From Promethearchaeota archaeon (GTDB taxonomy: Archaea; Asgardarchaeota; Lokiarchaeia; Sigyniarchaeales; SOKP01), in assembly GCA_048937405.1 (NCBI GenBank), contig JBHLNF010000003.1, forward strand, positions 160,001 through 224,000: a stretch of DNA of 64,000 nucleotides, in the 5' to 3' direction. This document shows positions 3,949 to 42,763 of this stretch, in pieces. The position numbers were made by a program, and so were the translations under genes. Under the pieces are notes generated by a model. It made no database searches. It was not told the DNA's origin and saw only the letters and a list, made by a program, of their open reading frames with translations. The number at the start of each line of letters is the position of its first letter. Position 1 is the first letter of the stretch.

Positions 3949-6288
3949 ATGATAAGTTATGAAGTATGTCTCTCATATTTAGTAATAATTAATGATATTA
4001 GCTATAAGGTAAAAGGTGAGCAAAAAATAAAATCTTCTGAAGAAAAATATCTAAACATTCTCGAGAATATGATGGATGGATATTATGAAACAGATCTTGA
4101 CGGTAAATTGCTTTATGTGAATACTGCATTTTGTAAAATTTTAGGATATTCAAAAGAAGAATTGATAGGAAAGGATAATCAAACATTTTATGATAAACAT
4201 TCACGAGATATTTTGTACAATATATTCTCCCAAGTATATAAAACAAGAACTCCTCGTCCTCCCTCAGGATTAGTTAAATTGATGACACTTAAGAAGAAGC
4301 TTATTTATTTAGAAGGTACAGTTGATTTATTATACGATTCTGAAGGTAATAAGGCCGGATTTTATGGTGTTGTTCGTGATATCACACAAAGGAAAATTGC
4401 TGAGCAAAAATTGAAAGAATCTGAAGAAAAATTCAGAAATATCGCAGATAATTCAGTATTAGGGATAACTATGATACAAGATGGCATATATAAATATTTC
4501 AATAACAGAGTTAATGAAATTAGTGGCTACTCTGCAGAAGATATTAAAAGCTGGGCTCCTAATGAATTTGCTAAAACAATTTATCCTGAAGATCGAGAAT
4601 TTGTAATGACACAAGCACGTAAGAAACAAACAGATGATCCTAATGTTGTCAATCAATACTCACACCGAATAATAAGGAAAGATGGGGAGATCAGATGGCT
4701 TGAAATTCTCTCGAAAACTATAAATTATGAAGGACGTCCAGCAGATTTAGCAATGGTCATTGACATTACTGATAAAATAAAAGCTGAAAGGCAATTAAGA
4801 GATTCAGAGGAAAAATTTTCTAAAGCATTCAATTCAAATATTTTATCTATGAGTATATCATCCTTTGAAGATGGTAAATTCATTGAAGTAAATGATGCTT
4901 TTTTAAAGTTTTTAGGTCGTTCTAGAGAAGAAGTTATTGGTAAAACGACTGATGAGCTAGGCTTATGGGTCAATGAAAAAGTGCGGAAAAGATTTTTAAG
5001 AATTATTGATAAACATGGAAGTCTATTTAATATAGAAACCAAAGATATACCAAGAACAGGAGAACCTAAATATGGATTAGTCTCTTATATTAAAATCATC
5101 CTTAATGAGAAACCCTTTCTTCTTAGTATTCTAAATAACATAACTCCCAGGAAATTAGCTGAGCAGCAATTAAAAGAATCAGAAGAAAAATTTAGATATA
5201 TCGCAGATCATTCATTATTGGGGATAACTATCCTACAAGATGGAGTATTAAAATATTATAATAAAAAAGTTGCTGAAACTTTTGGAGTGTCAGAAGAAGA
5301 GATTAAAAATTGGGGTCCTGGAGAATCATTAAAACTTATACATCCTGATGATCGCGATATTGTAAGGCGACAAGCAATTAAAGTACAAAACGGTGAATTT
5401 GATGATGTATTGAACTATAAATATAGAATAGTAAAGAAGGATGGAAAAATTGGATGGCGTGAAACTTTCTCGAAATCAATAATTTATGAAGGTCACCCAG
5501 CAGCTTTTGGAATTCATATTGATATTACAGAAAAGATCGAAGCTGAAAAGAAGCTAAAAGAATCCAAGGAAAAATATCTTCGAGCATATAATCAGGCAGA
5601 ATTTTATAAAGACCTTTTTATCCATGATATAAATAATACTCTCCAAAGTCTATATTCCTCTATCCAATTAATCGATATGGGCCTTGATGGGATTAGAGAA
5701 AATAATGATACTAGAGAACTCATAGATATTATGGATAGGCAGATCAAAAGAGGGATAAAGTTAATTTCTAATGTTCGTAAATTATCTCAATTGGAAGATC
5801 ATAAGATTTCCATTGAGGAAGTTAATGTCTTTAAGGTTTTAAAGCGATCTATAGAATTTTTAAAGAATTCATTTCAAGATAGGAAAATTAAAATAAAATG
5901 TGATACAATTAATAAGAAGTCCTTATTACTTGGTAATGATTTGCTTCAAGATGTATTCGAGAATATTCTAATCAACTCAGTTAGGCATAATAAAAATGAT
6001 GTTGTAGAAATAATAATAAGAACTTCACAAGTAGATCAGGATGGTACGACCTACTGTAAACTTGAATTTATTGACAATGGCATCGGGATTGAGGATGAGC
6101 GAAAGGAAAGTGTATTAACTCGTGGAGATCCAAATTCTAAAACTACATATGGGATGGGATTGGGTTTATCTTTAGTCAAAAAAATTATCGAGACTTATGG
6201 TGGAAAAATCTGGATTGAAGATAAAGTTAAAGGTGACTATTCTAAGGGAACTAATGTCATTTTATTAGTACAAAAAGGTGGTTATTGA
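3949..6288 (+). CDS. Multi-PAS sensor histidine kinase (4 intact PAS + HisKA + HATPase)
   Basis: Repeated PAS/PAC units separated by LKESEEKF linkers; H-box FIHDINN, N-box ENILINSVRHN, G1 DNGIGI, G2 GMGLGL. Confidence 0.92.
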   Translation: MISYEVCLSYLVIINDISYKVKGEQKIKSSEEKYLNILENMMDGYYETDLDGKLLYVNTAFCKILGYSKEELIGKDNQTFYDKHSRDILYNIFSQVYKTRTPRPPSGLVKLMTLKKKLIYLEGTVDLLYDSEGNKAGFYGVVRDITQRKIAEQKLKESEEKFRNIADNSVLGITMIQDGIYKYFNNRVNEISGYSAEDIKSWAPNEFAKTIYPEDREFVMTQARKKQTDDPNVVNQYSHRIIRKDGEIRWLEILSKTINYEGRPADLAMVIDITDKIKAERQLRDSEEKFSKAFNSNILSMSISSFEDGKFIEVNDAFLKFLGRSREEVIGKTTDELGLWVNEKVRKRFLRIIDKHGSLFNIETKDIPRTGEPKYGLVSYIKIILNEKPFLLSILNNITPRKLAEQQLKESEEKFRYIADHSLLGITILQDGVLKYYNKKVAETFGVSEEEIKNWGPGESLKLIHPDDRDIVRRQAIKVQNGEFDDVLNYKYRIVKKDGKIGWRETFSKSIIYEGHPAAFGIHIDITEKIEAEKKLKESKEKYLRAYNQAEFYKDLFIHDINNTLQSLYSSIQLIDMGLDGIRENNDTRELIDIMDRQIKRGIKLISNVRKLSQLEDHKISIEEVNVFKVLKRSIEFLKNSFQDRKIKIKCDTINKKSLLLGNDLLQDVFENILINSVRHNKNDVVEIIIRTSQVDQDGTTYCKLEFIDNGIGIEDERKESVLTRGDPNSKTTYGMGLGLSLVKKIIETYGGKIWIEDKVKGDYSKGTNVILLVQKGGY

Positions 6289-6659
6289 TAAATATTTCAA
6301 TTCTAATAGTTGATGATGATACAGATATTTTATTTTTGTATCAAAAAATGATAGAACGTATTGGGTTTGAGGTAATGGGAATAGCTCTTAATGGAGAAGA
6401 AGCTGTACAACTATTTAAATCATTTCAAAGAAAACCTGATATAATTCTGATGGATCATCGGATGCCAAAGAAAAATGGTCTTGAGGCTACAAAAGAGATT
6501 TTAAGTATAAACAATAACTCCAAAATTATTTTTGCGAGTGCGGATAAAAGTGTTGAAAAGGAAGCCCTTTCAGTTGGAGCCATAAGCTTCAAAGAGAAAC
6601 CATTTAGCATGGAAAACCTGAAAAATAATATTCTAAAAGCCATGAATCTAACACAATAA
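6285..6659 (+). CDS. Stand-alone CheY-like response regulator receiver
   Basis: ILIVDDD, phospho-Asp in LMDHRMP, FASA, KP; TTG start overlaps the kinase TGA (TTGA) behind a GGTGGT SD. Confidence 0.92.
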   Translation: MINISILIVDDDTDILFLYQKMIERIGFEVMGIALNGEEAVQLFKSFQRKPDIILMDHRMPKKNGLEATKEILSINNNSKIIFASADKSVEKEALSVGAISFKEKPFSMENLKNNILKAMNLTQ

Positions 6660-7088
6660 CTTCAGATAAATTAGCTTATAGAAATTCTATTTATTTTATC
6701 AACAGTAATTTGATAATATGAAGAGGTATAACATGCTAAATCTTAAAATAAAGGATTTATTTGATCTTACCAAGTTTCTTACTATTTATACCACCTTTAA
6801 TGAGAAAATTATTACAGATATTACTATTCAATGATCTAATCGTGATTAAGAAATTATTGAAACCATAATTATTAATTATTATATTCATGTATTTTTTTGA
6901 CTTTAAAATCTTAAAATTTGTCAATTATTATGATTCTATAAGATTCCTTATTCTTTTGAAATTATAAAATAAAACGATATTCTTAAAAATATATTCTTCT
7001 ATATTTAATTCAGTTAATTTTGCTTTAATTTAGTTACCACATCAAAAGTAAATACAAAGTAAAACAGTAGACTGTTGAGGCTTCTCAG

Positions 7089-29052: not shown

Positions 29053-30324
29053 TTAAGAAACTAGTACTTTTTCTATATTTTCGATAGCCCAATCAATTTC
29101 ATCCTTGGTAATGATTAATGGAGGGGCTAATCTAATAATTGTGGAATGAGTATCTTTTGCCAAAATACCATTATCCTTGAATTCTTCAACAATTTGTCTA
29201 GCATCTTCTTCAAATTCAATTGCCATTAGTAATCCTTTTCCTCTAATTTCTTTAATAGGTATTTTAGTTCTTTTAAAAGAAATCTCTTGTAATCTTTTCA
29301 AAAAATAATTACCCATCTCTTTAGCTCGTTCAGAAAGATTCTCTCGTAAATGAAGATCTATAGATTTCATCCCGATAGCAGAAGCTAAAGGATTTCCTCC
29401 AAAAGTGCTTCCATGAGTTCCTGGAGTTATAACCTCTGGACCAATAATTTCGTTTCTACTTACACATGCAGAAATAGGATATACTCCACCACCAAGAGCT
29501 TTACCTAATAAGATCATATCTGGTTTCACCTCCTCATGTTCGCACGCTAAAAATTTTCCAGTTCGACAAAACCCAGTTTGAACTTCGTCAGAAATTAGCA
29601 ATACATTATATTTTGTACAGATTTCTCTTACTTTTTTTAAATAGCCTTTTGGAGGAATCTTTACACCAGCTTCTCCTTGAATAGGTTCTACTAAGAAAGC
29701 TGCTACTTTTTCAGGACCAATTTCTAAAATTGCATTTTCTAATTCCTCAGCATTTCCATAGGGGATGATATTAAATCCTGGTGTGAAGGGTCCAAAATTT
29801 CCGTAATATCGTACTGCTGAAATATCAGAACTAAATCCTATAATAGTAACCGTCCTTCCATGAAAATTATTTCTGCATACAATTATTCTAGCCTCATCTT
29901 TGGGAATTTTTTTCTTAATATAACCCCAAGCCCGTACCACCTTTATCGCTGTTGAAACTGCTTCAGTTCCAGTAGTCATTGGAAGAGACATTATACCAGT
30001 ATTCTTAGGATCATAAATCTGTGGTCCTATCACTTCTGCCAGCATTTTTAGGAAAGGTCCCATCATAGTATTATGAAATGCTCGAGAGGTAAGAGTAACT
30101 ACATTTGCTTGTTCTTTTAATGTTGCGACGATTTCAGGATGACAATGACCCAAATTTTGACTTGAGTAGGCAGATAAGCAATCTAAATATTTTTTTCCTT
30201 CTGGATCATATACCCAAACTCCTTCAGCACGAGAAATTACAACTGGAATGGGATGATAATTGTGAGCACCATATTCCAAATCAATTTCAATATAATCATT
30301 TGATCTTAGCATGAAATATCCCAT
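29053..30324 (-). CDS. rocD: Ornithine-oxo-acid aminotransferase (class III PLP)
   Basis: YGAHNYHPIPVV, LSAYS..N.GHCHP, LTSRAF, EPIQGEAGV, DEVQTG, LGKALGGG, HGSTFGGNPL. Confidence 0.92.
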   Translation of the reverse strand: MGYFMLRSNDYIEIDLEYGAHNYHPIPVVISRAEGVWVYDPEGKKYLDCLSAYSSQNLGHCHPEIVATLKEQANVVTLTSRAFHNTMMGPFLKMLAEVIGPQIYDPKNTGIMSLPMTTGTEAVSTAIKVVRAWGYIKKKIPKDEARIIVCRNNFHGRTVTIIGFSSDISAVRYYGNFGPFTPGFNIIPYGNAEELENAILEIGPEKVAAFLVEPIQGEAGVKIPPKGYLKKVREICTKYNVLLISDEVQTGFCRTGKFLACEHEEVKPDMILLGKALGGGVYPISACVSRNEIIGPEVITPGTHGSTFGGNPLASAIGMKSIDLHLRENLSERAKEMGNYFLKRLQEISFKRTKIPIKEIRGKGLLMAIEFEEDARQIVEEFKDNGILAKDTHSTIIRLAPPLIITKDEIDWAIENIEKVLVS

Positions 30325-30513: not shown

Positions 30514-33087
30514 CTATTTTTGTACTTGAATCACTTCTGTTGATTCCTGTTCAGTTTTGAGATCTAATAGCTTTAATATTTCAATACCAAAAATGTTTGA
30601 TAAGATTTTATTCATCTCAGGTCCTCCCATATAACCTTGACATCCTAAATGAAGCTTATGAAAGTGCTCACCTAATTTAGTTTCAACCTCTTTTATGAAA
30701 TTAATAATTTTTTCTTCTAATAATTGGGATGGTGTTTCGTTTAATAAAAATACAACTTTAAATTCTCCATCTGTAAAGAACCCTCCCGATAAATAACCAT
30801 CTCTAAATTTAATAGATAATATTTCACCAACGTTCAATGCTTCTGCAGCAATATGATCCAATGCAGTAAGAAAACCAGATAATATTGTATTATCCACATC
30901 TTCTTTTGTGAAACTTAGCTCATACATGTTTTGACCACTTTCTCGATGCTGTATTAATAATTTTTCTATCATCTCAATATCTGGATCTATAATAAATGGC
31001 TTGATTAAGAAATTAACAATATCTTCACGAGTATTTCGCAATATTTTAAAAAGTTTTTTAGGTTTATTTCCATGTTGAGGTCCAGTTGGTTCTTCCCAGC
31101 TAGGATCATTTATCAATTGTGTGGCTGATCGACCAGTATTTCTCATAATTCCAACTTGTGCTCCAAATACTATAGCAGCATGGAATTCAAAAGCAGCAAT
31201 ACTCCCACCATTAATACCTATAAGTTTAATTCTACTTGGATCGATCCCTGATTTCATTATATCATACCAATATTGAATTGCTTCCATTACGCTAAAATCT
31301 TTTCCTTTTGTTTGATGAATTGTAGTGTATCTTCTATCAATTAAAACATCAGGAGGTAGTTTTTTTGGAATGTAACCAATTGATTTGATTTTTTCATTAT
31401 ATTCTTCCTGAATTTCTCCTACCATAGCACATATTCCCGCTTTAGTTCCCCCCGAGATAATTGTACCTTCGAAATCACTAAATGCTTCAGTAACACTATT
31501 TTTAATGAATTGTAGACTTCTTTCGATATTAACATCAGTTCCTCCTGCTATTATTACAATAGAATCATCAGAATATTTTTGTTTTTGTTTTAATTTAGAA
31601 TCTAAATATTTTATAGAATCTGTTATTAGTTTATCCGTTTTTTCCTTAATATTTGGATGAAAAATTATTCCTAGATGTAGAATTTGTTTTACTATGTCAA
31701 TTCCTTCTATTTGTCTTTCTTGAGATAATTTTAGTGTATTCAATGTATTAATAGTAGTTTCGACCATCCAAATATCGGGACTACATCGTATAGCTTTTAA
31801 GTAGTAATCTAAGGCATCTTTTATATTCCCTAATAATAGATTAAAGAGCCCTAGATCAAAGTATGCCCATGGTATATCAACCATTACTCTTGCCTGTGTT
31901 AATCTCCTTTCTATCCCTTTCTGAATCATTTCTCTATGTTTATCAATCTGAGTTATATCACCTGTTTGTTGAATTAATAATACTAAATAATTCCCTAAGG
32001 GATAAGGATCACCAGGATCAACTTTTAAAGCTTCCATATATGATTCTAATGCTTTATCATATAACTTTTGCTGTTTATACATACCTCCTAAAGAAGCCCA
32101 GGCATCAGAATTGAAAGGATTAATTTGAATTGATTGTTTTAAATAAGAACGTCCTTGGATAAATTCTTGACTCTCTGGCACTTTTTTATACTTTTTATGA
32201 TAAGAAACTCCAATATCTCGTAGTATTTCCGCTATTTCTGGATCTGAAGCTTTTTTAACACTCTCACTTTCAATAATTTCATTTAATATCTCTATACTTT
32301 TATCCATATCGTTTATAAACATTGCTAATTTTGCGATTCTATAACCCACTTGATAATTACTCTTGTCTGCTTCATAAACTAACATTAATCTGTCAATTTC
32401 AGATTTTATTTTTTCGTTGGACATATAAGCGCCATACACAGATTCGTAATGCTGCATTTTGTCAACTAACTCATTTAAAGCATTATCCTCGATTGATAAA
32501 AGTGATCTTACTCGAGTTAATTCTTGTTCATACAGCTTTGGAACTTCAAATTCATATTGGTTAAAAATTTTGTATTGATTTGCTGCCCAACCATGGCTAA
32601 TATATGTACCAATTTGAACTTCTGACTTGAAATTAAAAAATTTATCTTGTATATCCAAATTTAATCTATCATAGAGCTTCAAATCAGGATCAAGCTGAAT
32701 AGTATATATTTGGTAATGCTCTGGATATTGATTTTCTTTGATTTTTTTAAAACCATCACTAGTGCTACCAATACTAGTTAGAAAAATATCTCTTATAGCT
32801 TGAATGACAACATCCATCTCATTAACATTTGGTAAAATTATTCGAACTCCACATAAATCATTTATCTCTGCAATAGGATCAGAGTATTTTACATCAGGAT
32901 TCAATAATTTATTGGCAAAACTAGAAATTGTCTTTACTCTGTTTTGAATAATATATTCTGAAGAACACCCTTGTACTATATTCTCAAGAATTGTTTCTAT
33001 AACTTTAGAATACTCTTCATAAAGAGGACGTAATTCTTTATATCTATTAATTTGTTCTTCAAAAAACTTGCGTTGTTCTACTTCCAT
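30514..33087 (-). CDS. Multidomain protein: RelA/SpoT-like nucleotidyltransferase + TPR + SLOG-like + C-terminal longin-like domain
   Basis: RVKTISSFANK / DLCGVRI / EVQIGT..HGWA; TPR DAWASLGGMYK; IAGGT, IISGGTKAG, GINGG..AAFE, TGRSA; C-terminal SGQNMYELSF...ILSGFLTAL...E...I..IKF. Confidence 0.7.
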   Translation of the reverse strand: MEVEQRKFFEEQINRYKELRPLYEEYSKVIETILENIVQGCSSEYIIQNRVKTISSFANKLLNPDVKYSDPIAEINDLCGVRIILPNVNEMDVVIQAIRDIFLTSIGSTSDGFKKIKENQYPEHYQIYTIQLDPDLKLYDRLNLDIQDKFFNFKSEVQIGTYISHGWAANQYKIFNQYEFEVPKLYEQELTRVRSLLSIEDNALNELVDKMQHYESVYGAYMSNEKIKSEIDRLMLVYEADKSNYQVGYRIAKLAMFINDMDKSIEILNEIIESESVKKASDPEIAEILRDIGVSYHKKYKKVPESQEFIQGRSYLKQSIQINPFNSDAWASLGGMYKQQKLYDKALESYMEALKVDPGDPYPLGNYLVLLIQQTGDITQIDKHREMIQKGIERRLTQARVMVDIPWAYFDLGLFNLLLGNIKDALDYYLKAIRCSPDIWMVETTINTLNTLKLSQERQIEGIDIVKQILHLGIIFHPNIKEKTDKLITDSIKYLDSKLKQKQKYSDDSIVIIAGGTDVNIERSLQFIKNSVTEAFSDFEGTIISGGTKAGICAMVGEIQEEYNEKIKSIGYIPKKLPPDVLIDRRYTTIHQTKGKDFSVMEAIQYWYDIMKSGIDPSRIKLIGINGGSIAAFEFHAAIVFGAQVGIMRNTGRSATQLINDPSWEEPTGPQHGNKPKKLFKILRNTREDIVNFLIKPFIIDPDIEMIEKLLIQHRESGQNMYELSFTKEDVDNTILSGFLTALDHIAAEALNVGEILSIKFRDGYLSGGFFTDGEFKVVFLLNETPSQLLEEKIINFIKEVETKLGEHFHKLHLGCQGYMGGPEMNKILSNIFGIEILKLLDLKTEQESTEVIQVQK

Positions 33088-33753: not shown

Positions 33754-35334
33754 TTACCATAAAAGATTGGCAATAATACTTTTAGCAAAATCCGCTTGTT
33801 TTTTATTCAATACCTTTTGAATTCTCAAATCATTAATTGAATCCTCAAGTCGTGTATCCAGATTTTTCATTTCCATAAGATTATTTTTATCCCCTTGAGA
33901 TTCAACTAATTCAATCATCGCATTGTCTTTATTCATCAAATCTCTTAATCTTTGTCTAAAGCTTATTTTAACCTTAGTACTTACAATTTTTCCTTTATCA
34001 ATCAGTACTGGTAGTACAGGAGCTCTTTCCGTGCTTCGATTTGTATTAGGATCAACGAAATAAAATATACATATTGGAATTCCTACTATAACATTATTAG
34101 TCTTTAACTCAAGAGTATAATTATTTAAAAAATTTTGAACATTAGTCATTTCAGTATCTACAATGGATACGATATTGTCTAGACAAGATTGTTTCTCATT
34201 TTTTATTCTCGCAATCACATCTTCGGTAGAACTTAAATCACTGGAAAGTTCACTATGTTTTGTTTCTATTTCTTTTTCTACTTCAGATTTTTTGCGTTCC
34301 AATTCTCTTATTCTTTGTTGTTTTGATTTTTCTAGATCGCTAAGTTCTTTTTGTACATTTCTCTTTAACTGATTAATTTCAGTTTGATATCGAGAGATTG
34401 AATTTCCAAGATCTTGATATTTTAAATTTATATCTTTTAAAGCTTCTTCTACCAAAAATAAATCTCGTTGATTAATCGCATTTTTCATACTATCAACACT
34501 CTGCTTAAGTCTACTGATATCATTGTTTAGTTCTCCAGTTTTGTCATTTATTTTGTATTTACCAATTTTTACTAGTTCATCTGGAGATCCCTCAATTTCA
34601 CGTTGCATTTCTTTCTGTATTTCTTTATTAAGTATTGTAAGTTGCTTTTCTTCATCACTAGTATCTACCTTTGTATCTTTTATTTTATCAACTTGCTTAC
34701 CTCCCCTTTCAATCCATTTATCACATAACTTTATAATGGCATCTTCATAAGTCTCAAGCATACTAGCATCTTTTTGAGTCACAAAATCTAAAATTTCTGG
34801 TGCTATTTTTGTTTGATTCACACTTTTGGCTATAGCAGCACCTTCCAGCAGAAAATATGGCGTTGTATGAGCCCCTAAATCATATTGGTTTAAGAAAAAG
34901 TTTTGAAAATAACCAACCTCATTAGCATTAAATAGTGCCTCTTGAATTACAGTCCCACGTTTAAAATTCTTTGTTCTTTTTAAATACGTATTGTTATAAG
35001 ATTGTAATGAATTTAAGAAAGATGTGGGATCTGCTCCTTTTATCACATTTTCTGGTCTTGGTGGCATTTGAGCAAATTTCCCAACACTAAGTTTTTCTTG
35101 TTTATTCATAAGATAACTACAAACACAAGCTCTCGTATCACTTAGAGGAATTAACCGAACTGGCCAAAAAGCCGTTGAAATTTTTGCTAATTTCCCTAAT
35201 TTTTGAAGTTTCTTACCATATATCCCAATTAATTCAATCATACCCATTGCTAATTCATTTAATAAAGCAGCTTGGCTTCTTGCGGGAATTATTTCACCCA
35301 TATTAATTAAATAAGGAATTACTTTATTAACCAT
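33754..35334 (-). CDS. Hypothetical protein with a long central coiled coil
   Basis: Heptad-rich E/K/Q/L segment (about aa 200-400) flanked by globular N- and C-terminal regions (FWPVRLIP; VGIPICIFYF). Confidence 0.7.
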   Translation of the reverse strand: MVNKVIPYLINMGEIIPARSQAALLNELAMGMIELIGIYGKKLQKLGKLAKISTAFWPVRLIPLSDTRACVCSYLMNKQEKLSVGKFAQMPPRPENVIKGADPTSFLNSLQSYNNTYLKRTKNFKRGTVIQEALFNANEVGYFQNFFLNQYDLGAHTTPYFLLEGAAIAKSVNQTKIAPEILDFVTQKDASMLETYEDAIIKLCDKWIERGGKQVDKIKDTKVDTSDEEKQLTILNKEIQKEMQREIEGSPDELVKIGKYKINDKTGELNNDISRLKQSVDSMKNAINQRDLFLVEEALKDINLKYQDLGNSISRYQTEINQLKRNVQKELSDLEKSKQQRIRELERKKSEVEKEIETKHSELSSDLSSTEDVIARIKNEKQSCLDNIVSIVDTEMTNVQNFLNNYTLELKTNNVIVGIPICIFYFVDPNTNRSTERAPVLPVLIDKGKIVSTKVKISFRQRLRDLMNKDNAMIELVESQGDKNNLMEMKNLDTRLEDSINDLRIQKVLNKKQADFAKSIIANLLW

Positions 35335-35641: not shown

Positions 35642-38600
35642 TTATCTAATAATTTCCTCATGTAGTTTTTCGATAAATCCATCAAAATCTTCTTTAGTGA
35701 ATTTCACATTCAACAGTGGTGTAAGTAAGAAAGGAATTAATTCTTCAGTCTCATATACTGGAACTATTTTCATCAATCCTTTTTTCCTCATCTGAAATGC
35801 TGCTTGCCATTCATCTTCTACTGCTCTAGATTTGACTGAATGTTGAGAGCAAAAAAATACAAAGACTTTTGTCATTTTTAAAGTTCTTTCCATATAAGAC
35901 ACAATGTTTTCTCCACTGTCTTCTTCCCAAAAGAAAACTTTATCGACTTTTGGATATGTTTCTAATCGTTTCGCGATTTCTTTAATATTAAAATGTTTTG
36001 AATCAAGTGTTGAATAACTTAAAAACACATTTAATTCTTGAGTAAAGTAGCTTCTAATATTGTTGATAAATAATGGATAAGAAGACAATTGTTCAGAGGT
36101 TATAATACCTTGATTAATTCCTTTTTTGAAAATACTAAGGTTCATTAAATTAGTTTCAACCATGTCCTTATTTGGGAAAATCGTGGAGAATATTTGGTTC
36201 CAATTTTCATTATTAGTAATTATTGAACTACTATCGGATAAATCTATTGCATCCATAGGTTCTATTTGTGCTTTTAACTTGCTTGGCTTTATAGTTTGCA
36301 TTTTAATATCTAATGTTGATCTTATATATTCCGGAATTCCAACACCCCACCATTCAGATTCATAGTTGCTTTGCAATTTTAATTTAATAAAACTTTTTAG
36401 GTTAGATTCGAAATTTTCAATATCCTTTATAGCTATTTCTAATTGTTTTTTATGAGTAGATCTTTTGTTAATTTTTGGTTTGAGAATTAAATATATACTA
36501 ATGATACTAATAAGAGCTACAACTCCAACAATAATCAATATTATTTCAAATGCCGTTAATCCATCACCTCCATCTCCAGATGATTCCCCACTTATTTCTA
36601 GTATAAAATAGTCATAATTATCTCCCTCACCATTTTCTTTTAATTCTCCATATCTGGAACCGTAAGTTTCATTAATTAAATTATTAGGATCTATAATTAA
36701 TTCGATTACTACATCTCCCCCTGTTGAATCAATACTACTACTTGTGAATATATGGGAAAATGTCTTATTCACTCCTAAATATTCTATTGGGGTATCTGAA
36801 TTATTATATAAAATATCCCCCGTATATTCAACCCTAATTATAATTTCAATATTATTTGCTTCCCAAATACCATTATTAATGATTGTAAAATTTAATACAA
36901 ATGACTTACCTATTTCTGCAGTGCTCGCATGAAAATTTACAACTGCTAAATTGGGCATTGGATACCAGAAGCGAATCAATGGTTCAGTCCCTAATTTTAC
37001 TTCAATTCCATCAAGAAAAGTGTCTCCATCACTATCGTTGTTTTTAGGATCTGTTTGATGTTTAAATTCATCTATATTTAAAAGTTGATCATTGTCCGAA
37101 TCTGTTAAATTATCATTACCATTGAGTGGTTCCAAACCATTGAGAACTTCCCATAGATCTTCCATATTATCAAAATCGGTGTCTTTATTCCATGGATTGG
37201 TTAAATTAAGCGCTTCCCAATAATCATTTAACCCATCACCATCAGAATCTGGATTGGTAACATTAGTTCGATATGTATCACTACCTGGTATATATTCTTC
37301 ATAATTATATAACCTGTCTCCGTCAGTATCCTCATAGGTTGGATAAATTAGAGGATTTGAATCAAAAACCCGAGTAGTTCCATCAATTAAAAATGGAATA
37401 TCTCCAATTCCATCCTCTGGATTTAGATCTTCCCCCTTATACTCATCCCAATAATTACCTGCATAACCATCATCCCAAGTATTATTAACGCCACTGTCTT
37501 CAGCATCCACCTCATTATTGATAAAATTATTATAACAAATTTTATTATCTTCTAGATATAAAGATTCTTCTATAAGAATACCAAATTCTTTATTATCGGT
37601 AATCCTATTATTTTGAATAGTATTATTCTTATTAGCATTTTTTTCTTCAAAATATATTCCAAATCTCTCATTGCCTTTTATTGTATTATTACTAATTATA
37701 TTATTGTCGGAATAATTTAAAATATAAAGTCCATATCCTCCACCTAATTCAAGAAACGATAAAGGTTTATTTGTAATTTTATTAAAATTAAATGAATTGT
37801 TAAAGAAGATATTATTAGAACTATCTTGCAAATATAATCCAGCATCATTGTTGTTAAGCTCGTTAAATGAAAAATGACTATTATTAGTTGATACTAAAAC
37901 CAAACCTAATTGATTATTATTTATAATACAGTTTGAAAAATTACACTCTTTAGATAAAAACGATACTATTCCAAAAAAATAATTATCTGTTAAATTAATC
38001 CTTTCAAAGAGAGTATTACTACAATTAAAAAGAAATAATCCTAATGATACATTAAAGAGATCTAAGTCTGATATATAGGAATTTTCTGAATTAACTAAAT
38101 AAACTTGACTTGCGTTTGTAAAATCAGAAGGACCTAAATTCGATTCATTATAATAATAATAAAATCTTTTATCATTTACCGTATTTGTATCATCTATATC
38201 AAACGTATCTTCCTGGATGGCATTAGATACTAAGGTAATTCCACCCCCTTTAAATTCATTACCACTAAGCTTTGTATGATCAACAACACCTTCCTCAGGA
38301 AAAACTAAAATAGAACTTCCTATATTATTGATACCTGAATTATTTGTTATAATAGTAGTGTCAACATTATTTGATAATAATAAACCAATAAGATTATTCT
38401 TAAAGAAACATTGTGAAATAGTACTATTATCGCTTTCACAAACGATTATACCACTTCTACAATTACTAAAATTATTTTTTAAAATAGAGTTATTATGACA
38501 ATAAAAATTTAGGAGTAATCCTTCCTCACTATTAAAAGAAGCACTATTGTTAGTAATTATATTATTAGAACAATTATATAATGTAATTCCGACTGTAGCA

Positions 38601-40558
38601 TGAGTAATATTTGTATTTGATATAATTGAATTATTACAATTTATTAAAATTATTTGTCCGGCATTTTTTATTAGATTAGTATCTTTTACTTGTTCATTCC
38701 AGCGGTAGATCAGTGGTTTTGCATTTACTTCATTATCAGTAATATTATATGAAATATTATTAAAAGAAAGAGAGGGTAAATAATCCTCTTCCTTAAAATT
38801 TATGTATAATCCACAATAAGTTAGTTGATTTTCCAAAATTGTAACATTAAAAACATTAAATAAATAAATACCACTTTTTCCATTATACTTCCCCTTATTC
38901 TTGGTAAGGTTATTATAATTACTCCATTCCAGAAAAATTCCATTACCATAGTCAGCCGAAGATTCCAAATCTTGATGAGCAGTATTATTATTCATTGTAT
39001 TATTTAAGATTAAATTATATTCACTACCACCACTCAAACGTATACCATTAGAATTGAATGTGGCAATATTTTCAGAAATATTATTATTATTGCTCTCAAC
39101 AAGATGTAATCCCTCTAAAGTATTATTAATTAATGTATTTTCTAAAATAGTATTATTCTCACAATTTTCCAATAAAATACCTGTCATAGCATGGTCATAC
39201 GAGCGTAAATCTTTATTGTTACATTTCACTCTATTTTTTGTAATATTATTGTTGAAACATTCTCTAAGATGAATTCCAACTTCATTATATGAGACATTAT
39301 TCTCTATAATTTTACTGAAAGTAGTTGATCTTATTTTAATCCCAAAGAAATTACTATTATTAATTTCATTAGAATCGATTGTTATATTATAACAATAAGT
39401 TAAATCAATCCCATATTCTCTATTATTATTTAACGTATTGTTTCTAATTGTGATATTTTCACAAAAATGTAAGCTAACTCCTATCGAAGAAGAAGAAATG
39501 TTAAAATCAGAGATTAATGAATCATTACATCCTGCTAATATAATTTGTCCTGGAGGTTCTGGAGGTCCAGTTTGTGTAAAATCTTGGTTATTAAGATTGC
39601 TTTCGTTAAAATAATAATACACAGATTTCCCATTTACTGTATTACTTGTATCAATATTATAATCAAAATAAAAAAGAGAATTACCATTGAAACTTAGACC
39701 ACAATCTACCATTTGATTAGCTGCTAAGGTATTATTTGTAGATTCAAAAAAATACATTCCTCTCGTATTGTTCACAAGACGATTCTGACTAATATTGTTA
39801 TGATTACAATTTGCTTGAAATGAGATTCCTAAATTCCCATTATAAGAAAGATTATTTTCTTTTATAATATTCATTGTACAGAAATCTTTAGCCCAAATCC
39901 CTGATTGACCATTATTTTCAATAGTATTATTAAATATAATATTATTTTCACATAAAGTTTCTAATTCAAATCCACGGTGAAAATTATGATGAATTTGATT
40001 ATCTGAAAAATTGTTATAAGAACTACTACCATTTATCCTTATTCCAACTTCATTACCGAATATTTTATTTTTTTGAATTATATTGTTTTCACTTTTATTT
40101 AGCCATATACCATATTTTTGATTACTAAAAAATGTACTATTAATTATTTTACCATTAGTAACATTATTAAACATCAATCCAAAATACATTTCGCTGGATC
40201 CAAATAAGGTACAATTATTAATCACAAAATAATCCTCTGAATTTTCTATAAGGATGCAAAAACCTGAAGCTCCGGCATTAATTGTAACATTTTCAATTAA
40301 ATGAGGATCTGCTAAATCTCCGGTTCTATTCTGGATCCAATCAAGATCCGCGTCAGACCAATTATCATTTGCGATATGAATTGGAGGGCAATTTGGCCAA
40401 AAATCTGCTGTTTTTAACTTAGAATCATTATTAGTGGATTCAAAATTCTTTTCTGCTGTAAAATAGTTCCAAAAATCCCCCCTAAGAAATGAATAACTGG
40501 AGAATATAAATACAAGTATTAATAAAACTTCAATTTTTTTTTTTTTTTCTTGAATCAT
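35642..40558 (-). CDS. Membrane receptor-like protein: signal anchor, NosD/CASH beta-helix ectodomain, Ca-binding DxDxDG repeats, CARDB/Ig-like, TM helix, Swt1/HEPN-like domain, C-terminal TIR
   Basis: GIxL..s.nN.I..N repeats; DTDGDRL, DSDGDGLNDYWE, DSDGDTFLDGIE; PNLAVV...IINNG...IIDPNNLINE; TM FEIILIIVGVVALISIISIYLIL then KPK; IENFESNLKSFI...EWWGVGIP...ENWNQIF; TIR NVFLSYS...FFWEED...FVFFCS..SVKSRAVEDEWQAA...IVPV. Confidence 0.8.
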   Translation of the reverse strand: MIQEKKKKIEVLLILVFIFSSYSFLRGDFWNYFTAEKNFESTNNDSKLKTADFWPNCPPIHIANDNWSDADLDWIQNRTGDLADPHLIENVTINAGASGFCILIENSEDYFVINNCTLFGSSEMYFGLMFNNVTNGKIINSTFFSNQKYGIWLNKSENNIIQKNKIFGNEVGIRINGSSSYNNFSDNQIHHNFHRGFELETLCENNIIFNNTIENNGQSGIWAKDFCTMNIIKENNLSYNGNLGISFQANCNHNNISQNRLVNNTRGMYFFESTNNTLAANQMVDCGLSFNGNSLFYFDYNIDTSNTVNGKSVYYYFNESNLNNQDFTQTGPPEPPGQIILAGCNDSLISDFNISSSSIGVSLHFCENITIRNNTLNNNREYGIDLTYCYNITIDSNEINNSNFFGIKIRSTTFSKIIENNVSYNEVGIHLRECFNNNITKNRVKCNNKDLRSYDHAMTGILLENCENNTILENTLINNTLEGLHLVESNNNNISENIATFNSNGIRLSGGSEYNLILNNTMNNNTAHQDLESSADYGNGIFLEWSNYNNLTKNKGKYNGKSGIYLFNVFNVTILENQLTYCGLYINFKEEDYLPSLSFNNISYNITDNEVNAKPLIYRWNEQVKDTNLIKNAGQIILINCNNSIISNTNITHATVGITLYNCSNNIITNNSASFNSEEGLLLNFYCHNNSILKNNFSNCRSGIIVCESDNSTISQCFFKNNLIGLLLSNNVDTTIITNNSGINNIGSSILVFPEEGVVDHTKLSGNEFKGGGITLVSNAIQEDTFDIDDTNTVNDKRFYYYYNESNLGPSDFTNASQVYLVNSENSYISDLDLFNVSLGLFLFNCSNTLFERINLTDNYFFGIVSFLSKECNFSNCIINNNQLGLVLVSTNNSHFSFNELNNNDAGLYLQDSSNNIFFNNSFNFNKITNKPLSFLELGGGYGLYILNYSDNNIISNNTIKGNERFGIYFEEKNANKNNTIQNNRITDNKEFGILIEESLYLEDNKICYNNFINNEVDAEDSGVNNTWDDGYAGNYWDEYKGEDLNPEDGIGDIPFLIDGTTRVFDSNPLIYPTYEDTDGDRLYNYEEYIPGSDTYRTNVTNPDSDGDGLNDYWEALNLTNPWNKDTDFDNMEDLWEVLNGLEPLNGNDNLTDSDNDQLLNIDEFKHQTDPKNNDSDGDTFLDGIEVKLGTEPLIRFWYPMPNLAVVNFHASTAEIGKSFVLNFTIINNGIWEANNIEIIIRVEYTGDILYNNSDTPIEYLGVNKTFSHIFTSSSIDSTGGDVVIELIIDPNNLINETYGSRYGELKENGEGDNYDYFILEISGESSGDGGDGLTAFEIILIIVGVVALISIISIYLILKPKINKRSTHKKQLEIAIKDIENFESNLKSFIKLKLQSNYESEWWGVGIPEYIRSTLDIKMQTIKPSKLKAQIEPMDAIDLSDSSSIITNNENWNQIFSTIFPNKDMVETNLMNLSIFKKGINQGIITSEQLSSYPLFINNIRSYFTQELNVFLSYSTLDSKHFNIKEIAKRLETYPKVDKVFFWEEDSGENIVSYMERTLKMTKVFVFFCSQHSVKSRAVEDEWQAAFQMRKKGLMKIVPVYETEELIPFLLTPLLNVKFTKEDFDGFIEKLHEEIIR

Positions 40559-41638: not shown

Positions 41639-42763
41639 TTGCAAAATAAAGATAAACAAATAAAAAGAATAGGTTTAATTGTAAATCCCATCGCAGGAAT
41701 GGGAGGAAGCGTAGGACTTAAAGGAACAGATGGAAAAATATTCAGACAAGCTGAAAAAATGGGTGCTATGCCTGTAACTCCCATTAGAGCAAAGGAATTA
41801 TTAGTGAATTTGAAAAACAAGGAAAAAATGATACTATTAGTGGCACCAGGTAAAATGGGAGCTGAAATTGTTAGAAATCTTGGTATAAAATTTAAAATTA
41901 TTGGCGAAATTGGTACTGAAACAACAGCTGCAGATACTAAAAGAATTGCGAAGCGAATGCTAGAAGACAATATTGATCTTTTAATATTTTGTGGCGGAGA
42001 TGGAACAGCACGGGATATTTTCGATTCAATTGGATTAGAAAAGCCTGTTGTTGCTCTACCTGCTGGAGTAAAAATGTTTAGTTCTGTTTTTGCTATAAAT
42101 CCTAGAGCTGCGGCAGAGATAGTTGATAAATTTATCGAAGAAGCGATAGAAACCCAAGAAAAGGAGGTTCTTGATATTGATGAAGATTTAGTTCGTCAAG
42201 ATATCTTACAAGCAAAATTATACGGATATTTGAAAGTACCGAAAATCTTAGGGTTAATACAAGCAGGAAAAGTTAGTTCTGGGATGGGGAAAACAGTTGA
42301 AGAAAATAAACAAGAAATTTCTCAGTTCATAATCGAGAATATGGAAACTGATATTTTATATCTACTGGGACCAGGCACCACGATAAAGACAATAACGGAC
42401 AATCTTCAATTACCTAAAACTCTTCTTGGAATAGATGCTGTATATAATAATAAATCTGTTGGGTTAGATTTAAATGAGAAAAATATTCTGGAATTGTTAA
42501 ATCATTATAAAAAGGTTATAATCATCATTTCCCCTATTGGGGGTCAAGGTTTTATTTTCGGACGTGGAAATAAGCAAATTACACCCAAAATTCTAAAAAT
42601 AATAGGAAAAGAAAATATTAGAATCATATCTACTGTAGAGAAAATCAGACAATTAGATTGTCTAAGAGTTGATACGGGAGATATTGAGACAGATAAGAAG
42701 TTAATAGGTTTTACTAAAGTTATTACAGGTTATAAAGAAGAACTGATAATCAACGTTGAATAA
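41639..42763 (+). CDS. ATP-NAD kinase family protein (archaeal type)
   Basis: NPIAGMGGSVGLKGTDG, GGDGTARD, PAGVKMFS, GGQGFIFGRGNKQ, VDTGD. Confidence 0.85.
   Translation: MQNKDKQIKRIGLIVNPIAGMGGSVGLKGTDGKIFRQAEKMGAMPVTPIRAKELLVNLKNKEKMILLVAPGKMGAEIVRNLGIKFKIIGEIGTETTAADTKRIAKRMLEDNIDLLIFCGGDGTARDIFDSIGLEKPVVALPAGVKMFSSVFAINPRAAAEIVDKFIEEAIETQEKEVLDIDEDLVRQDILQAKLYGYLKVPKILGLIQAGKVSSGMGKTVEENKQEISQFIIENMETDILYLLGPGTTIKTITDNLQLPKTLLGIDAVYNNKSVGLDLNEKNILELLNHYKKVIIIISPIGGQGFIFGRGNKQITPKILKIIGKENIRIISTVEKIRQLDCLRVDTGDIETDKKLIGFTKVITGYKEELIINVE

Follow-up and report, generated by a model that had tools for sequence, protein, structure and literature searches.

A 64,000-nucleotide stretch of the genome of a Promethearchaeota archaeon, a Loki-type Asgard (GenBank assembly GCA_048937405.1, contig JBHLNF010000003.1, positions 160,001 to 224,000; hereafter the window) encodes a protein, P0001, in which a very large beta-helical ectodomain is joined through a single transmembrane (TM) helix to a C-terminal TIR domain. 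The gene lies on the minus strand and its reading frame is intact and uninterrupted over 1638 codons, as seen in the open reading frame (ORF) list and the translation. By analogy with known TIR systems, P0001 is proposed here to act as an outside-in, Thoeris-like receptor, the TIR product of which would be read by a SLOG-domain protein encoded close by. Catalysis, ligand and signal are all postulated in this proposal, which we consider somewhat better than an even bet. The parts of the receptor gene are the following:

35642-40558, minus strand: TIR receptor gene P0001, a 1638-amino-acid (aa) ORF, from translation
40478-40534, minus strand: N-terminal signal peptide or signal anchor, aa 9-27, directly after KKKK, with a Kyte-Doolittle peak of 1.76
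37433-40297, minus strand: right-handed parallel beta-helix (NosD/CASH-type) ectodomain, aa 88-1042, from Pfam and NCBIfam
36989-37336, minus strand: five thrombospondin-type-3-like calcium-binding DxDxD repeats, aa 1075-1190, from motif positions and TSP3_bac
36665-36955, minus strand: CARDB (immunoglobulin-like) domain, aa 1202-1298, from a Pfam CARDB match above cut-off
36479-36547, minus strand: TM helix, aa 1338-1360 (Kyte-Doolittle 3.08), ahead of a stop-transfer segment rich in K/R
36038-36436, minus strand: cytoplasmic helical domain, Swt1-type HEPN-like and lacking Rx4-6H, aa 1375-1507, from Pfam, PADLOC and structure
35663-36028, minus strand: TIR domain (TIR_2 type), aa 1511-1632, the fold reaching the C-terminus, from Pfam, AlphaFold2 and structure comparison
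35810-35812, minus strand: codon of E1583, catalytic-position Glu of the TIR (motif S..V.DEW), from alignment

A first-pass annotation of the window had described this gene as a receptor shaped like a Toll-like receptor (TLR), with a signal or anchor, beta-helix repeats, calcium-binding repeats, a CARDB domain, a TM helix and a TIR. All of these elements are present at coordinates that agree within a few codons, and the ectodomain-TM-TIR layout is real, with beta-helix, TSP3, CARDB, TM helix and TIR_2 all detected in a single ORF. The beta-helix is recognized by the Pfam families NosD (234 bits) and Beta_helix (215 bits), with seven stretches each between aa 88 and 1042, and by the NCBIfam model para_beta_helix in 11 stretches. 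The DxDxD motifs start at aa 1077, 1104, 1126, 1153 and 1175, and a Pfam scan of aa 1040-1335 taken alone returns TSP3_bac at 27.4 bits (cut-off 25) and CARDB at 24.2 bits for aa 1202-1298 (cut-off 22.7). No match to leucine-rich repeats (LRRs) was returned for the ectodomain in the Pfam scans. The same order of beta-helix, TM helix, linker and TIR recurs within one ORF in over 25 independent contigs, drawn from NCBI, JGI, ENA and Logan assemblies, which argues that P0001 is neither a chance ORF nor an assembly artefact. Nothing was found that speaks for an artefact, and the probability that it is a chimera, with a surface-protein gene joined to a TIR gene across the TM region, is thus close to nil.

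Topology was assessed from established rules, namely a 19-residue Kyte-Doolittle scan, the positive-inside rule, and counts of sequons and cysteines. The scan shows two hydrophobic segments only, aa 9-27 and aa 1338-1360, the first of which is also seen in paralogues and orthologues of P0001. In the 20 residues before the TM helix there are five acidic residues and neither Lys nor Arg, compared with seven Lys or Arg in the 20 residues after it. Between the two hydrophobic segments there are 61 NxS/T sequons, about 32 being expected from composition, compared to a single one on the inner side; similarly, 24 cysteines lie outside and one within the C-terminal 277 residues. The charge bias and the distributions of sequons and cysteines all place the TIR in the cytoplasm, as the first-pass annotation had supposed, and suggest that P0001 is likely a type-I single-pass protein with its beta-helix outside the cell.

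The C-terminal domain is matched by the Pfam family TIR_2 (PF13676) at 56.2 bits in the whole protein and 60.4 bits in the tail alone, well over the cut-off of 28. The model for animal and plant TIRs (PF01582) reaches 18.0-20.5 bits, below its cut-off of 21.3, and ThsB_TIR is borderline on the tail, at 21.4 bits for a cut-off of 21.2. An AlphaFold2 model of the cytoplasmic part has a mean predicted local distance difference test (pLDDT) score of 88.5 and a predicted TM-score (pTM) of 0.77. Residues 148-277 of this model align with solved TIR structures by VIA-align at Z 13-15.3 and root-mean-square deviations (rmsd) of 2.2-3.3 Å over about 125 residues, the matches including SPARTA TIR-APAZ, RPS4, AbTir, Hydra TRR-2, RUN1, Cat1, SARM1, MyD88 and the interleukin-1 receptor (IL-1R) family; the Foldseek TM-score, normalised to the target, is 0.75. 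As modelled, the C-terminus of P0001 certainly has the flavodoxin-like alpha/beta TIR fold, which confirms the TIR called from the letters alone. The near-tied Z-scores point to no kinship with any single TIR class, the modelled domain being structurally equidistant from prokaryotic, plant and animal TIRs. A search of a protein atlas with the cytoplasmic part returned nothing beyond sub-threshold bacterial TIR_2 clusters, with a score of 0.79.

The putative catalytic residue was examined in an alignment (A1) of the cytoplasmic parts of 33 orthologues; to the full-length orthologues, this part of P0001 is 47-86% identical. The motif S1577-x2-V1580-x-D-E1583-W1584 is invariant in all 33 sequences, an equivalent of E1583 is present in 188 of the 192 TIR domains of the wider clade, and HMMER aligns E1583 with the DEL-motif Glu of Arabidopsis AtTIR (3jrn) and of Cat1 (9mud). 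E1583 is the Glu to which the first-pass annotation had drawn attention. A survey of TIR domains describes the Glu at this position as critical for NADase activity (PMC7075850). Its conservation and its alignment with enzymatic TIRs make the TIR of P0001 look like an enzyme-type domain, with catalysis predicted from these sequence features. Two motifs of TLRs are missing from P0001 and likewise from all 33 orthologues: Box 2 (RDxxPG, in the BB loop), the BB-loop region of P0001 being FFWEEDSGENIV, and Box 3 (FW), which is absent from the C-terminal helix.

Between the TM helix and the TIR there is a further domain of around 135 residues which was absent from the first-pass description. The Pfam family HEPN_Swt1 (PF18731) matches it at 22 bits (E 2e-4), under the cut-off of 27.5, and the PADLOC model PDC-M34B matches at E 9.5e-8. 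When folded alone, it is modelled by AlphaFold2 with a pLDDT of 91. Foldseek gave no significant match for the isolated linker, and an exhaustive VIA search placed the HEPN domain of yeast Swt1 (4pqz) on top, at Z 8.0 and an rmsd of 2.4 Å over 99 residues, followed by AbiF (Z 7.1), AbiA (Z 6.5) and many HEPN chains at Z 5-7; sacsin, Csm6, HepT and Cas13b are among the HEPN proteins in the match list. These Z values, none above 8.0, are modest for helical bundles. Since the leads from sequence and structure agree, the linker is likely to adopt a HEPN-like fold, as far as models can tell. The Rx4-6H nuclease motif is not found in the 33 orthologues, none of the positions 4-6 residues past the Arg holding a conserved His, and P0001 lacks even the Arg. 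The domain is therefore read as non-catalytic, which makes a role as an RNase unlikely; most likely it is a juxtamembrane dimerising or regulatory module. A complex prediction with two copies of the domain gave a score of 0.00, which is uninformative either way as to dimerisation. The HEPN-like linker is single-copy in the genome of the window.

P0001 belongs to a large modular family with variable sensor ectodomains and a TIR that hardly changes. With the cytoplasmic part as query, a word-indexed search found 54 long proteins. In 24 of them (P0002-P0025) both linker and TIR are covered, and in another 29 (P0026-P0054) the likeness lies mainly in the TIR (50-70% identity), their ectodomains being beta-helices or, in some, containing SBP_bac_5, Peripla_BP_6, ANF_receptor or fn3 domains. 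Exhaustive searching with HMMER gave 806 clusters (at 50% identity) with E values up to 0.001, 125 of them at E 1e-30 or below. Both searches together supplied 186 TIR homologues; in 112 of these the TIR is C-terminal and a TM-like segment precedes it, at a median spacing of 150 residues. The genome of the window alone has 13 TIR_2 matches, five of them with a TIR closely related to that of P0001. Four of the five are membrane proteins, namely an SBP_bac_5-TM-TIR protein, a Peripla_BP_6 and beta-helix-TM-TIR protein, a WD40, fn3 and beta-helix-TM-TIR protein, and a beta-helix-TM-TIR protein, all of which begin with a signal, cross the membrane once and end in a TIR; the fifth is the cytosolic LRR-TIR protein described below. 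The genome also has genes for short TIR proteins (333-362 aa) and for TIR-less beta-helix surface proteins related to the ectodomain of P0001.

The rate of change differs along the receptor. Compared with its orthologues, P0001 has a median identity of 33% in the beta-helix, 51% in the TSP3-CARDB region, 45% in the HEPN-like domain and 76% in the TIR. Such a quickly diverging exterior on a tightly constrained interior is what would be expected if a sensor were coupled to a shared signalling output. The first-pass proposal of a glycan- or surface-sensing receptor signalling through its TIR thus fits in its sensor-to-signal part, to which this divergence of 33% versus 76% and the conserved SLOG-domain neighbour described below can now be added; its glycan part is a supposition drawn from the class of beta-helix.

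Matches to the receptor family are found in 111 of 399 sampled genomes of the phylum, most of these in the taxonomic family of the window, where 86 of 133 genomes have one. In a motif-based scan of one genome per species across 185,579 species, which detects close relatives only, matches occurred only in Asgard metagenome-assembled genomes (MAGs) and in MAGs of unclassified 'uncultured archaeon', most being labelled Promethearchaeota or Promethearchaeia and a few Odinarchaeota or Hermodarchaeota.

Two side observations concern the family. Outside the window, the same genome encodes a 483-aa paralogue (L021; G000:C7:1009887-1011338, minus strand) with seven LRR_4 matches (140 bits), a weak PCI-like helical stretch and a TIR that is 63% identical to that of P0001; it has no hydrophobic segments, and is thus a cytosolic LRR-TIR protein in an Asgard archaeon. 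Furthermore, decayed TIR fragments with in-frame stops or truncated ORFs lie near intact family members in other genomes (L016, G224:C15, 5670-5963; G195:C77:15666-15905; G191:C82:62352-62714), which suggests ongoing birth and decay of receptor copies.

The genes surrounding P0001 provide a candidate partner for the TIR. The neighbours that recur are the following:

30514-33087, minus strand: 857-aa protein with a RelA/SpoT-like domain, TPRs, a SLOG domain (LSDAT_prok) and a C-terminal tail; candidate reader of the TIR product
33754-35334, minus strand: 526-aa coiled-coil protein P0187, 307 bp downstream of P0001; conserved neighbour
41639-42763, plus strand, and 29053-30324, minus strand: flanking NAD kinase and class-III aminotransferase genes, with counterparts at 5966-7063 and 18557-19759 of the orthologous locus L024

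The SLOG gene is on the same strand as P0001, 2.5 kb downstream. In Pfam, its product matches RelA_SpoT at 42 bits and LSDAT_prok, the TRPM-type SLOG family, at 24.1 bits for a cut-off of 25.4. Among its orthologues, RelA_SpoT is detected in 12 of 12 and LSDAT_prok in 8 of 12 (best E 4.9e-7), and LSDAT_prok is already on record as a precomputed match for the L024 gene. The RelA/SpoT part is also matched by PADLOC PDC-S33, and a profile of the orthologues matches the small alarmone synthetases YjbM and YwaC at about E 1e-12. In two genomes the partner is split into a RelA/SpoT-TPR ORF and a SLOG-tail ORF, adjacent or overlapping (L015, G267:C47, 10489-13211; L024, 15512-18030), which could be a split gene or a frameshift. 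The intervening P0187, with a coiled coil in its centre, is conserved at 75-90% identity within the genus and adjoins the orthologous receptor in at least eight loci (G198, G210, G177, G215, G267, G224, L023 and L024/L025), its placement relative to the receptor being variable; no family could be assigned to it from Pfam, NCBIfam, PADLOC or the protein atlas beyond coiled-coil noise. Both P0187 and the SLOG gene are single-copy in the genome of the window.

In all loci that could be judged but one, no more than 3 kb separates a full-length SLOG orthologue from a TIR gene. This holds in the window's own genome, G177, G215, G210, G184, G222, G223, G224, G249, G267, and L024 and L025, which are two independent assemblies, as well as in G195, where the TIR is degraded, and in G149, where the two genes are convergent; the exception is G182, in which the TIR genes are around 12 kb from the SLOG gene. 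Three SLOG loci that reach a contig edge were left out of this count. Since there are 13 TIR genes in 4.47 Mb, a given gene would be expected to lie that close (3 kb) to a TIR gene by chance in roughly 2% of cases. The orientation of the genes varies among loci, and so does their order: TIR, middle gene and SLOG; middle gene, TIR and SLOG; TIR, SLOG, middle gene and TIR; or TIR and middle gene, then more TIR receptors, then SLOG. The association of TIR and SLOG therefore survives rearrangement. It also extends to a second TIR class with the same type of partner, the cytosolic TPR-TIR proteins. A distant RelA/SpoT-TPR-SLOG subfamily of 669 aa, around 36% identical and without the tail, is encoded directly after one to three cytosolic TPR-TIR genes in G213, G240, G180 and G229. 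Two of these loci (L003, G213:C44:19000-35000; L004, G240:C65:23000-39000) have two or three tandem genes for cytosolic MalT-like-TPR-TIR proteins of about 720-840 aa directly upstream of the 669-aa gene, a layout that resembles Thoeris systems with multiple TIR sensors.

The flanking genes for NAD kinase, class-III aminotransferase and a methyltransferase recur at the orthologous locus L024, and these syntenic metabolic flanks indicate that the module occupies a stable chromosomal site and not a mobile defence island. A defence-island context was accordingly set aside, the flanks being metabolic (aminotransferases, NAD kinase, methyltransferase) and the orthologous locus syntenic. The presence of a NAD kinase beside a putatively NAD+-consuming TIR may be chance synteny or a functional link. 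Two eukaryote-signature genes were also seen near orthologous receptors: a GPP34 (Golgi phosphoprotein 3 family) gene directly after the receptor in L026 (14918-15712), and an Arf/Ras/Roc small GTPase gene near the one in L024 (469-1083).

TIR enzymes are activated by clustering. In the mechanism proposed for P0001, a surface ligand, such as a polysaccharide, a neighbouring cell or a virus, would engage the ectodomain and cause the cytoplasmic TIRs to cluster. The clustered TIRs would then turn NAD+ into a nucleotide signal, for example one of the cyclic ADP-ribose (cADPR) type or an ADP-ribose conjugate, to be bound by the SLOG domain of the 857-aa neighbour. The bound SLOG protein would in turn switch on its alarmone-synthetase-like domain, its tail, or both. 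The logic would be that of Thoeris, from TIR sensor to SLOG reader, driven here from outside the cell. These steps are modelled on established TIR biology, that is, on activation by clustering and on the binding of Thoeris products by SLOG domains: in Thoeris of type I, the ligand of a SLOG domain is 3'cADPR produced by a TIR, and in type III several TIR proteins are accompanied by one SLOG effector (preprint 10.64898/2025.12.03.692087). Sensing of the environment or of cell contact would be at least as likely a purpose as antiviral defence, because of the solute-binding ectodomains of the sister receptors and the non-island context.

Several points weigh against this proposal. The SLOG match of the window's own protein falls just below the Pfam cut-off, and PADLOC detected no ThsA or ThsB at the locus, returning only PDC-M34B and PDC-S33. 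Next to one orthologous receptor, P0022 (L026, on a 21-kb contig), both partners are missing. Adjacency was counted across closely related genomes, and the cases are therefore not independent of one another; the gaps of 307 and 666 bp between the three genes do not require a single operon. Enzymatic activity, ligand and signal are all inferred, and the topology follows from hydropathy, charge and sequon counts and not from a dedicated predictor. Finally, with a metabolic, non-island locus the role may be immunity or general sensing.

Other explanations account for part of these observations. P0001 could be a self-contained suicide or arrest effector, in which a disturbance of the surface, for instance the attachment of a virus, would lead the TIR to deplete NAD+ and the SLOG neighbour would play no part. 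The conserved catalytic-position Glu, the presence of the NAD+-depleting SPARTA and SARM1 TIRs among the nearest structural matches, and a fast-evolving ectodomain compatible with an arms race would all fit such an effector. However, the SLOG adjacency is repeated, survives rearrangement and holds for a different TIR class too, the solute-binding ectodomains of the paralogues point to small-molecule sensing, and the many receptor paralogues for one SLOG gene fit many sensors feeding one reader, so this explanation is considered unlikely. A scaffolding role, in the classical view of TLRs and MyD88, would have a non-catalytic TIR recruit cytosolic TIR-only proteins through TIR-TIR assembly; the genome does encode short TIR proteins (333-362 aa) and a cytosolic LRR-TIR, and the likeness of the domain to the MyD88 and MAL TIR filaments equals that to enzymatic TIRs. 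Such a role is nevertheless decidedly improbable given that the Glu is nearly universal (188/192) along with the S..V.DEW motif, that Box 2 and Box 3 of TLRs, as defined in PMC7075850, are absent, and that the locus has no linked adaptor-type domains.

It is also conceivable that P0001 is mainly a structural surface protein or adhesin, the tail of which controls anchoring, turnover or inside-out regulation. No ligand is known for P0001, beta-helix genes occur in arrays, and the same genome has the TIR-less relatives of the ectodomain mentioned above. Against this stand the cytoplasmic part of 278 aa, which is conserved far more strongly than the ectodomain, and the sister receptors, which put ectodomains of ligand-binding type (SBP_bac_5, Peripla_BP_6) on the same TIR; an adhesin is thus quite unlikely. 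Signalling from TIR to SLOG, with the reservations given, remains the reading that we prefer.

Known forms of TIR signalling comprise cytosolic sensors, in bacteria and plants, and membrane receptors, in animals. If the proposal is true, a TIR of catalytic type placed behind a TM helix and an exchangeable extracellular sensor would add a third form to these, and if this TIR feeds a dedicated SLOG reader, second messengers made by TIRs would have a pathway that is driven from outside the cell. A full-text literature search, with most subscription journals outside its coverage, found no description of archaeal transmembrane TIR receptors, and a 2026 survey of the Asgard defensome makes no mention of them. 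Within its family, what is particular to P0001 is the HEPN-like insert and the conserved three-gene neighbourhood. The family occurs in the closest known archaeal relatives of eukaryotes, and it bears on how TIR receptors can be gated from outside and on whether a TLR-like layout arose more than once.

Among known systems, the cytosolic TIR enzymes SARM1, SPARTA TIR-APAZ, AbTir and Cat1 share with P0001 a TIR of TIR_2 type with the catalytic Glu, preceded by a helical or oligomerising module, and they are the best structural matches of its TIR (Z 13-15.3). They are triggered by nicotinamide mononucleotide (NMN) and NAD+, by guide-target nucleic acid or by cyclic tetra-adenylate (cA4), and not through an ectodomain. 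The HEPN domains of Swt1 (4pqz), AbiF and AbiA probably resemble the linker in fold, with the Z-scores given above (8.0, 7.1 and 6.5) and a weak Pfam match; they differ in that the P0001 orthologue set is without Rx4-6H, which makes an RNase role unlikely.

With Toll/TLRs and IL-1R, P0001 has in common a single-pass type-I layout with a solenoid ectodomain and a C-terminal cytoplasmic TIR, and its TIR fold matches that of Hydra TRR-2 (PDB 4w8g) at a Z of about 14. A 2026 preprint reports that the TIRs of TLRs are able to be catalytic too (10.64898/2026.04.20.719644), which would bring the functional analogy closer and provides no evidence of common descent. The differences are several. The ectodomain is of LRR or IL-1R-type immunoglobulin kind in the animal receptors and a beta-helix with TSP3 and CARDB in P0001, which adds a HEPN-like domain and is without Box 2 and Box 3. 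The TIR_2 match is strong and PF01582 sub-threshold, structural scores are no closer to animal TIRs, and no MyD88-like adaptor is known for the Asgard receptor. The likeness to TLRs is therefore architectural only, with no specific kinship. The first-pass annotation had left room for an ancestral design shared with TLRs, which finds no support in a TIR of TIR_2 type that scores 20.5 for a PF01582 cut-off of 21.3, is devoid of Box 2 and Box 3, and yields non-discriminating structural scores. It is very improbable that eukaryotes inherited the module of ectodomain, TM helix and catalytic TIR vertically (as Toll/TLR and IL-1R) via an archaeal ancestor, without convergence.

With Thoeris, the similarity lies in a TIR with a catalytic-position Glu encoded beside a SLOG-domain protein, in several TIR sensors accompanying one SLOG gene, and in the predicted logic from a TIR-made nucleotide to a SLOG reader. 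The components are different: ThsB is a small cytosolic protein, whereas P0001 is a transmembrane protein of 1638 aa with a large extracellular domain, and the Asgard SLOG is of the TRPM/LSDAT_prok type and fused to a RelA/SpoT-like domain, TPRs and a tail, whereas the effectors of Thoeris have SIR2 (joined to SLOG in type I), Macro or TM domains, none of which is fused to the Asgard SLOG. The Asgard locus also lies outside defence islands, with no phage phenotype known. Taken together, P0001 works as though a Thoeris sensor and a Toll-like receptor had been combined, and is a member of neither group, with Thoeris as currently defined.

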